From Escherichia coli (lineage in GTDB: Bacteria > Pseudomonadota > Gammaproteobacteria > Enterobacterales > Enterobacteriaceae), in NCBI RefSeq assembly GCF_046105845.1, contig NZ_CP151004.1: a stretch of 64,000 nucleotides of DNA. One strand, written 5' to 3'. The position numbers were made by a program, and so were the translations under genes. The stretch's first letter is position 1. Every line of letters begins with the position of its first letter. Positions 13,040-14,534 of the stretch are shown piece after piece. The notes below the pieces were generated by a model that did not search any database, was not told the origin of the DNA, and was given only the letters and a program-made list of their open reading frames with translations.

Positions 13040-13061
13040 TTATTTTGTTTCATTCTAAGAA

Positions 13062-13085
13062 AAGGCCCTAATAAATTAGGGCCTT
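13062..13085. terminator. bidirectional hairpin between convergent ugd and gla-like gene
   Basis: aaggccctaa...ttagggcctt stem flanked by A-run and T-run. Confidence 0.6.
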
Positions 13086-13104
13086 TTCTTATGGTTTTGT
13101 AAAA

Positions 13105-14109
13105 TCAAACTTTATAGAAGTTACGATACCATTCTACAAAGTTCTTTACCCCCTCTTTAACTGACGTTTCAGGTTTGAATCCTATTACGTCATACAGTGC
13201 TTTTGTATCAGCACTGGTTTCCAGTACATCACCGGGTTGGAGAGGCATCATATTTTTGTTGGCTTCAATACCCAGAGCCTCTTCTAAGGCATTGATATAG
13301 TCCATCAACTCCACAGGCGAACTATTACCTATGTTATAGATACGATATGGTGCTGAACTTGTTGCAGGCGAGCCTGTTTCTACAGCCCACTGTGGATCTT
13401 TTTCTGGAATAACATCCTGTAAGCGAATAATAGCTTCGGCAATATCATCAATATAAGTAAAGTCACGCTTCATTTTGCCGAAGTTGTAAACATCAATGCT
13501 TTTACCTTCCAGCATGGCTTTAGTAAATTTAAATAATGCCATATCCGGACGTCCCCATGGACCATAAACCGTAAAGAAACGCAGCCCTGTGGTCGGTAAG
13601 CCATACAAATGAGAATACGTATGGGCCATGAGTTCATTCGCTTTTTTAGTTGCTGCATAAAGCGAAACAGGATGATCTACAGAGTCATCTGTAGAGAAAG
13701 GCATCTTGCGGTTCATGCCATAAACAGAACTGGAGGAAGCGTAAAGTAGATGTTGAACATTATTATGGCGGCATCCTTCCAGTATGTTCAGGAATCCAAT
13801 CAGGTTTGCATCTGCATATGTATTGGGATTTTCAAGGGAGTAACGTACACCTGCTTGCGCAGCGAGGTTTATTACGCGATCGAACCGCTCGTCTGCAAAT
13901 AGTGCCGCCATTTTCTCACGATCGGCCAGGTCAATTTTATAAAAACTGAAATTGTCGTGCTTGAGTAAATCAAGTCGTGCTTGTTTGAGGTTGACATCGT
14001 AATAATCATTTAAGTTATCAATGCCTACAACCTGATGACCAGCTGCAAGAAGCCGTTTACTTACATAGAAACCGATAAAGCCAGCAGCTCCCGTAACCAG
14101 AAATTTCAT
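13105..14109 (-). CDS. gla: UDP-glucuronate 4-epimerase (NAD-dependent epimerase, Gla-like)
   Basis: 334 aa; [21 protein letters not shown] Rossmann N-terminus and overall resemblance to UDP-GlcA 4-epimerases. Confidence 0.75.
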
Positions 14110-14286
14110 TTATAATCCTCACTCAGGCTAGAATATAGCCAATCTTCATCTGGCATAACTGAAAGTTAAATCATACCGTTAGACAAGAAAAAAAGATAAT
14201 CGGTATCAGTTCTAAACCTGGCTGTTTTTTCTGGTAACGTGCTCATTTTGCAATCATAGCTGTTCTAAGCTGACTATTAGACCACC

Positions 14287-14388
14287 TTCAAACAACAAGC
14301 CGACGTCATTATTTCCAACCGTATGGCAGAAGAGCTTAAAGATGTGGCAGATAAGGTCTATACCCGCGATCTCTTTGGCAGCGACTAA
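14287..14388 (+). pseudogene. duplicated 3'-terminal fragment of ugd
   Basis: In-frame translation [33 protein letters not shown] is a second copy of a Ugd C-terminus; the intact ugd ends ...[29 protein letters not shown]. Confidence 0.8.
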
Positions 14389-14397
14389 CATCCTGTT

Positions 14398-14420
14398 ATC
14401 AGGGCGATTTTCGCCCTGAT
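14398..14420 (+). terminator. hairpin after the ugd 3' fragment (likely ancestral ugd terminator)
   Basis: atcagggcgattttcgccctgat perfect stem-loop. Confidence 0.5.
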
Positions 14421-14534
14421 TCTCTTATGTTCCCTTTGTAATAATTCATTATTTTTATCATTTATCCTATAGCATTCATGGCGATTATCGCTAAACTATG
14501 GCGACTTAAAATTATTTCGTCCGTTAGGGTAATG

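Follow-up and report, generated by a model that had tools for sequence, protein, structure and literature searches.

The window analysed here, a stretch of 64,000 nucleotides (nt) of the Escherichia coli contig NZ_CP151004.1 (assembly GCF_046105845.1), covers the O-antigen/his interval of this species. In it, the intact ugd gene for UDP-glucose 6-dehydrogenase is followed by the convergent gla gene for a predicted UDP-glucuronate 4-epimerase, and then by a second 3' end of ugd, a 107-nt stub (14282–14388, plus strand) that has the stop codon and lacks the start. This stub is the displaced 3' end of the resident ugd and marks a recombination junction at 14281/14282, which upholds the central proposal of an earlier note on this DNA. 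We consider it probable that the stub is the scar of one old, one-sided event of homology-facilitated illegitimate recombination. The scar is real, well defined and of an ordinary, familiar kind, useful as a marker and for annotation and unsurprising to specialists; the understanding of how such loci evolve is unchanged by it.

The ugd stub and its terminator

The second in-frame Ugd C-terminus that the earlier note had read at 14287..14388 is borne out by translation, with 27 of 33 residues of this plus-strand frame identical to the intact Ugd C-terminus, and by a 94–97% match to intact ugd ends. Over its 107 nt, the stub is 94.4% identical to the ugd 3' end of K-12, 97.2% to that of A33, and 94.4% to that of A34, all of them strains without gla. 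Its similarity to the window's own ugd 3' end is also significant (76.5% over 102 nt, E 8e-17 in a small database), and the resemblance to ugd is far above chance. Homology to the native gene begins at 14282 (CCACCTTCAAAC...), 5 bases ahead of the previously noted 14287. With 107 of the 1,167 nt of ugd kept and no reading frame upstream, the stub is a gene remnant. When 13040–14430 was used as a query against 5,426 complete E. coli genomes, thousands of them matched at the stub part only, under an annotated ugd; in other genomes, the stub itself is labelled by PGAP as “hypothetical protein; incomplete; missing N-terminus”.

Behind the stub, scanning and folding revealed a hairpin (14398–14420, plus strand; 10 pairs, −16.9 kcal/mol, z −5.2 against shuffled sequences), so that the claim of a hairpin belonging to the second terminus was correct; the T-run behind 14420 is weak (TCTCTTATGT). 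The same hairpin stands behind the intact ugd in K-12, A33, and A34. It is the native ugd terminator, now orphaned, and the native ugd–wzz spacer (14389–14534, plus strand; 98.6% identical to A33/A34 and 83.6% to K-12) continues to wzzB, the gene for the O-antigen chain-length determinant (14535–15512, plus strand; NCBIfam NF012015, 604 bits at a cut-off of 267), which forms the right flank of the scar. We regard the stub as dead DNA with no function expected, and its decay has already begun, since most carriers have a 17-bp deletion.

The duplication is tied to gla: two places matching the query occur in only 4 of 3,940 genomes, and two gla-less oddities which we examined, and which need not belong to these four, are built differently. 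VREC0864 was rejected as a gla-less duplication because its ugd is split by IS3, and O177:H21 because it represents an ugd–wzz deletion (locus 4038–5259), by which the end of ugd and all of wzzB were lost and a frameshifted ugd runs almost directly into hisIE. The match in IH5 was not accepted as a duplication either, as it lies in a stretch of gene fragments only and is probably a misassembly; this locus of a “complete” chromosome (1–10113) holds only unrelated gene fragments, including a part of gla, and is by its appearance an assembly artefact. A target-site duplication was rejected as well, since at 76% identity the two ugd 3' ends are those of different alleles.

The ugd–gla block and its relatives

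The left boundary of the unusual DNA lies not in ugd but beside the conserved gnd gene for 6-phosphogluconate dehydrogenase (10218–11624, plus strand; 94–97% nt identity to K-12, A33, and A34). Calculated per 100 nt, the identity to K-12 and A33 is 87–99% through gnd and then 50–80% across the gnd–ugd spacer and the entire ugd, with the drop located about 10 nt past the gnd stop (~11635). The window's intact ugd, which we call the “A type” (11873–13039, plus strand; 388 amino acids (aa), NCBIfam NF011631, 797 bits at a cut-off of 757), is 52–80% identical per 100 nt to the K-12-type gene over its full length, except for a conserved block at 12618–12717. Overall, the two types share 74–75% of nucleotides and 83.5% of amino acids; synonymous divergence (dS) between them is saturated, and nonsynonymous divergence (dN) equals 0.107. 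Analysis of informative sites found no switch to the K-12 type within the window's ugd, and a mosaic gene was rejected on this ground.

The divergence jump which the earlier note expected inside ugd was therefore not borne out. Because the jump follows the gnd stop and the ugd types are saturated in dS, it was the complete ugd with its own upstream spacer that came in. The suggestion that a gla-containing segment was recombined into this place survives in so far as gla lies between the stub and the working ugd; the suggestion that this segment supplied only a new ugd terminus does not.

The block 11635–14281 is a complete, different, and deeply diverged type, in which the spacer is followed by the whole ugd, a terminator, and gla, with another 172 nt of non-coding DNA separating the gla start from the ugd stub. 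The A-type spacer (11635–11872, plus strand) shares only about 54% of its nucleotides with the spacers of K-12 and A33, in which BLAST finds no match. Between the convergent ugd and gla, a terminator scan detected a bidirectional intrinsic terminator with a perfect 16-bp hairpin (13056–13091; −23.9 kcal/mol on both strands, z −6.8 and −7.0 against shuffled sequences), which is conserved at 98–100% in other gla-plus genomes. The gla gene itself (also named uge; 13105–14109, minus strand) encodes 334 aa. The 172 nt are divided into a gla-proximal region (14110–14249, minus strand), a putative promoter and 5' leader of gla that is collinear with Citrobacter, and a patch next to the joint (14250–14281), the last A-type DNA, which was delimited by alignment with PapM, JNE, EC20, and O8:H28. 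The open reading frame list and the annotations contain no transposase or integrase gene between 11635 and 14281; terminal repeats had no dedicated search.

Junctions inside ugd do occur in E. coli, in strains other than that of the window. The gla-less A34-type genomes have a hybrid ugd, in which the window-type spacer (98.4% identical) and the first 330–400 nt are followed by the K-12 type, with the crossover zone at the window equivalent of 12200–12300 (A34 locus 3753–5166 corresponds to window 11625–13039). About 671 genomes lie in the 80–90% identity band that would fit this hybrid.

Relatives outside E. coli were sought in a genome collection, the search covering the matches listed, 600 stretches. 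Among these, the arrangement gnd–ugd><gla–wzz–hisIE occurs in several Citrobacter species, Enterobacter cloacae, E. asburiae, and Kluyvera (in Kluyvera with no wzz match between gla and hisIE), and none of the Citrobacter, Enterobacter, and Kluyvera loci has an ugd stub. The E. coli gla–wzz interval is collinear with that of Citrobacter at both ends, over about 140 nt on the gla side and about 95 nt on the wzz side, and the stub with its terminator occupies the middle between them. The ugd-proximal 40 nt of the A-type spacer and the CGCGATATAAT box are common to Citrobacter as well, the ugd-proximal part being nearly identical to that of Citrobacter sp. FP75. The A-type Ugd protein is 90–92% identical to those of Citrobacter, Enterobacter, and Kluyvera, and in DNA comparisons the K-12-type ugd is the outlier. 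The nucleotide identity of the A-type ugd and gla to other genera is 72–80%, that of hisIE 80–83%. For gla alone, the DNA is 72–78% identical to Citrobacter, Enterobacter, and Kluyvera, and the best Gla protein outside E. coli reaches at most 89% identity, both among the matches listed; on these figures, a recent import from a named genus was rejected. The listed members of the 90% protein cluster of Gla are all from E. coli.

Origin of the joint

Of the 5,426 complete genomes, 278, or about 5%, have the E. coli-type gla at 95% nt identity or more, and three variants of the joint were distinguished. Variant A, the form of the window with the 107-nt stub, was found in 65 genomes. Variant B is A minus 17 bp (TAGACCACCTTCAAACA), the loss comprising 4 nt on the gla side of the joint and the first 13 nt of the stub; an 80-nt probe counted it in up to 195 genomes, the likely range being about 174–195. 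Variant C, with another patch of 31–35 nt on the gla side, was found in 39 genomes, many of them of O8/O9 type. The probe counts for A, B, and C add up to 299, more than the 278 genomes with gla, and fragments of some A genomes may have been merged by the search tool; we think that some of these were counted by the B probe too, which puts B at about 174, in agreement also with the 242 records from a separate search. Metagenomes scanned for a 33-mer located upstream of gla yielded 13 independent contigs, of which 1 had junction A, 10 had B, and 2 had C, with no other form. In a search for a stub-free gla copy, the metagenome scan with the gla-side 23-mer followed by a base other than C gave 0 matches.

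In variants A and C, the ugd homology starts at the same base. The gla alleles group as ((A,B),C), in line with the junction types, their dS being 0.005 within A, 0.023 within B, 0.04–0.06 between A and B, and about 0.10 to C. A single introduction fits these data, because the highest gla dS (0.107) is below the intraspecific values of gnd, hisIE, and both ugd types (0.18–0.29). This points to one origin of the joint, with the 17-bp loss occurring later in one branch and with spread by homologous recombination.

Homology-facilitated illegitimate recombination has been described for transformation in Acinetobacter and Streptococcus pneumoniae, and its joints are usually marked by short microhomology. 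The locus studied here resembles these cases in having one homologous anchor on the gnd side and one end without homology, foreign DNA being gained and resident DNA lost; it differs from them in that the process is read from the sequence of its product. That product is one-sided: the left boundary lies beside the conserved gnd, and the right joint lies in the resident ugd, of which 1,060 nt are missing together with the spacer. We suppose that the recipient had the common layout gnd–ugd(K-12 type)–wzz and that the donor DNA came from a relative with gnd–ugd><gla–wzz. On the left, a homologous crossover would have occurred in or upstream of gnd, which is the likely anchor of the exchange. At a point about 170 nt upstream of gla, the incoming DNA would have been fused on its right, with no homology involved, to the resident ugd at 107 nt from the stop codon of that gene, with deletion of the resident gnd–ugd spacer and the first 1,060 nt of the resident ugd. 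The block 11635–14281 would thereby have brought a complete ugd, the bidirectional terminator, and gla, and the scar-bearing arrangement would then have spread across E. coli lineages and O-antigen types by homologous recombination in its flanks.

Entry of the ugd–gla block into a K-12-type chromosome is favoured because most possible recipients by far are of the K-12 type (about 95% of the species), the diversity of gla is reduced, and no stub-free carrier was found. Several observations speak against this scenario. The donor search found none, the closest Gla outside E. coli reaching at most 89% identity in protein and 78% in DNA among the matches listed. The patch next to the joint is about 55–60% alike between A and C (loci L090 5141–5171 and L108 7021–7051 versus window 14250–14281), and both its flanks are about 88–97% alike, a difference poorly explained by a single event followed by neutral drift. 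The count of variant B is uncertain within 174–195. Finally, the structure alone leaves the direction of the event unfixed, as the same product would result if a gla-plus chromosome received K-12-type DNA with its anchor in wzz/his.

If the direction was reversed, the ancestral Escherichia arrangement would have been gnd–ugd(A)–gla–wzz, and K-12-type DNA anchored in wzz/his would have entered from the right and been joined illegitimately, by a left end lying in ugd 107 nt from the stop, into the gla–wzz spacer, the stub being the incoming part and the A-type ugd with gla the resident one. This would agree with the similarity of the A-type Ugd to other genera (90–92% versus 83.5% to the K-12 type), with the ugd-proximal spacer common to Citrobacter, with the nucleotide identity of the A-type ugd and gla to other genera (72–80%), which is near that of hisIE (80–83%), and with the collinearity of both gla–wzz spacer ends with Citrobacter. 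However, it requires stub-free gla-plus E. coli, and none was found among the approximately 278 genomes or the 13 metagenome contigs; moreover, gla is less diverse than its neighbours, which suggests its later arrival, and about 95% of the species are recipients of the K-12 type. We consider the reversed direction unlikely.

Somewhat more open, but also tentative, is a broader suggestion: the ugd><gla pair may be the original arrangement of the Escherichia lineage, as in Citrobacter, Enterobacter, and Kluyvera, the K-12-type ugd with its upstream spacer may be a foreign replacement, and the scar may reflect the way in which the old pair returned. The genes for UDP-glucuronic acid (UDP-GlcA) and UDP-galacturonic acid (UDP-GalA) have been placed elsewhere on the chromosome, at conserved loci (PMC7685785); linked to the suggestion above, gla would instead belong physically to the O-antigen region as a variable module of about 2.6 kb and would not count among the housekeeping genes of such loci. 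If this is true, transfer or engineering of O antigens with galacturonic acid (GalA), as well as O-locus typing, must include the ugd–wzz interval.

A tandem intermediate would need two rare events instead of one: the block would have been inserted upstream of a complete resident ugd, and the redundant copy would later have lost its first 1,060 nt. Deletions do happen here, as the stub is still shrinking by the 17-bp deletion of variant B, and insertion sequence (IS) elements and deletions are common in the interval. Nevertheless, neither a longer stub nor a second full ugd was seen, two matches occurring in only 4 of the 3,940 genomes, and the gla-less oddities that we checked turned out to be an IS-split ugd and an ugd–wzz deletion; such a course seems quite improbable.

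Still more doubtful is that A and C were joined independently at a hotspot, from two related donors with differing gla–wzz spacers and guided by a short patch of similarity. The gla-side patch is indeed strongly different in A and C with the ugd endpoint being the same, and the gla–wzz spacers of Citrobacter are hypervariable (in loci L087 and L089 the gla genes are 96% identical and the mid-spacers very different). One Citrobacter spacer also has CAAACAGAAAG at the position of the E. coli CAAACAACAAG; however, this similarity amounts to 9 of 11 bases in one species only. Unless a guiding motif can be shown, it is improbable that separate illegitimate joins would hit one and the same base in a gene of 1,167 nt, and the gla tree fits a single introduction. 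For neither patch, A or C, did the window or the related loci yield a 10-mer source, and no intact ugd allele carries homology on into the C patch.

A comparison within E. coli shows how the same genes can arrive without a scar. A second, Enterobacter-like gla, with about 75% DNA identity to that of the window, is present in 14 E. coli genomes. In one of them, LD26-1 (locus 3134–11298; O100-family wzy), the whole gnd–ugd–gla–wzz–hisIE stretch is 82–91% identical to E. cloacae; as in the window, ugd and gla are supplied in the interval from gnd to wzz. Unlike the window, LD26-1 lacks an ugd stub, and IS600 and IS30 are located between gla and wzz. The LD26-1-type gla is an independent acquisition by double homologous replacement, with homology on both sides. 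Since it has no stub, the stub belongs to one particular event and not to gla acquisition generally.

Function of gla and spread of the module

The reverse-oriented gene which the earlier note had described as gla-like encodes a 334-aa epimerase of the short-chain dehydrogenase/reductase (SDR) type. It aligns end to end with PDB 5u4q (E 3e-190, about 86% identical) and over its full length with PDB 6zl6 (E 7e-44); the latter, which we take to be the UDP-glucuronic acid 4-epimerase of Bacillus cereus, is labelled by its depositor only as “Epimerase domain-containing protein”. The depositor label of 5u4q is dTDP-glucose 4,6-dehydratase, which looks wrong for the Gla family. In the alignment to both structures, Gla has the GxxGxxG motif as TGAAGFIG (residues 6–13), SSSS at about 125–128, and YxxxK as YAATK, that is, the NAD site and the catalytic S/T...YxxxK of an extended SDR. 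The representatives of the Gla cluster have Pfam records for Epimerase and related families, and none of the NCBIfam equivalog models reaches its cut-off for Gla. The protein is 86–87% identical to those of Klebsiella, Citrobacter, and other enterobacteria, some of which are named NAD-dependent epimerase or UDP-glucuronate 4-epimerase, and the same identity to Klebsiella pneumoniae proteins makes it a close relative of a characterised UDP-GlcA 4-epimerase.

In Klebsiella, the gene located just past ugd in the opposite direction is glaKP/uge, the characterised gene for the UDP-galacturonic acid C4-epimerase (PMC3101168). The convergent ugd and glaKP at the end of the K. pneumoniae cps cluster are arranged as in the window, with Gla about 86% identical. 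Klebsiella gla was described in all three fully sequenced strains, where it serves the lipopolysaccharide (LPS) core (PMC3101168); in contrast, E. coli gla is an accessory module, present in about 5% of genomes and accompanied by a scar.

By these similarities, Gla is predicted to turn UDP-glucuronic acid, the product of Ugd, into UDP-galacturonic acid, a substrate that the glycosyltransferases of the adjacent polysaccharide cluster would require. The predicted activity is supported indirectly by strain LL004, because with the same gene and the same spacing it makes an O unit with D-GalA; its gene layout is that of the window and its spacing that of variant B (PMC8657804). There, orf11 (complement 13158..14162 of the locus) is a 334-aa epimerase gene located 65 nt after ugd and 408 nt before wzz; it was named gne, and gla was stated to map elsewhere (PMC8657804). 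The gne label is probably a mis-assignment. Among E. coli alleles, dN/dS of gla is mostly about 0.04–0.12, so the gene is maintained.

The upstream region of gla (14110–14249) is partly conserved with respect to Citrobacter, including the block ATCATACCGTTAGAC...GATAATCGGTATC, and is not present in gla-less E. coli among the 5,426 complete genomes. This block (window 14170–14215) contains an inverted repeat, ATACCG/CGGTAT, which may be a candidate regulatory site for gla. In E. coli C (H177, H304) and in WG5 derivatives, which have junction B, gla lacks its last 237 nt; in WG5::PA8 (locus 4851–6768), a copy of ISSen4 abuts the gla truncation, and wzzB is split by IS3.

The ugd–gla module adjoins at least six different polysaccharide clusters: that of the window, and those of PapM-36-2 and JNE141411, of WG5 and E. 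coli C, of an O48-family strain, of strains with O155-family wzx or O8 genes, and of a stub-carrying O113:H21 strain. The window, too, is mosaic in structure: over 8110–10110, the O-antigen genes match JNEC-KY203 with junction B, and about 12500–14300 is almost identical to PapM-36-2 with junction A, a recent crossover being located near 12500 within the A-type ugd.

In E. coli O-antigen clusters, “anomalies” such as gene remnants, counted in nine serogroups, and sugar genes out of their usual place are common and have been read as traces of recent events (PMC7685785). The ugd stub resembles the O-antigen and capsule junction remnants of E. coli, Shigella, and Salmonella (PMC7685785) in being a truncated housekeeping or sugar-pathway gene beside acquired polysaccharide genes, in the highly recombining gnd–his interval, and in being read as a past exchange. 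It is unlike them in its position between ugd and wzz, outside the galF–gnd cluster as usually delimited, and in its distribution, which is not serogroup-specific but extends over about 5% of complete genomes and many clusters. No description of the stub was found in the searchable full-text literature, outside of which many subscription papers on individual O antigens lie.

We suggest that the stub can serve as a convenient and unambiguous marker: nearly all E. coli with this gla would descend, for a small interval, from one recombination event, and the ugd–gla–stub interval would since have been shuffled beside many O-antigen clusters, another example of the gnd–his region being built from pieces. 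Recognising this module would sharpen the O-locus boundaries for in-silico serotyping and for the cloning of GalA-containing O antigens. It is also a matter of annotation, as the stub appears only as a partial “hypothetical protein” and gla is sometimes given another role, such as gne in LL004 (PMC8657804).

Upstream of gnd, the window has rmlA and rmlC followed by glycosyltransferase, flippase-like, ATP-grasp, and polymerase-like genes (562–9084) and by a galE-like gene (9103–10110). This O-antigen cluster (562–10110) is rare: only 2 of the 5,426 complete genomes have it at 99%. In its distal half, it resembles the O48-family clusters at about 83%. It includes GT2 and GT4 glycosyltransferase genes, an ATP-grasp protein gene (5896–6933), and a polymerase/ligase-family gene (7963–9084). 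Judging by its ATP-grasp gene, the cluster may specify a uronic acid with an amide-linked amino acid, in keeping with a requirement for gla. Beyond wzzB, hisIE and the remaining his operon lie on the minus strand. Rfam gives zero matches within 11600–15600; elsewhere in the window, it finds the histidine operon leader (22690–22813, minus strand), the STnc240 and STnc230 small RNAs, and a cobalamin riboswitch, the three remaining matches being located at 25111–25185 (plus), 49375–49458 (minus), and 50525–50699 (plus), all of them expected for such a chromosomal region.

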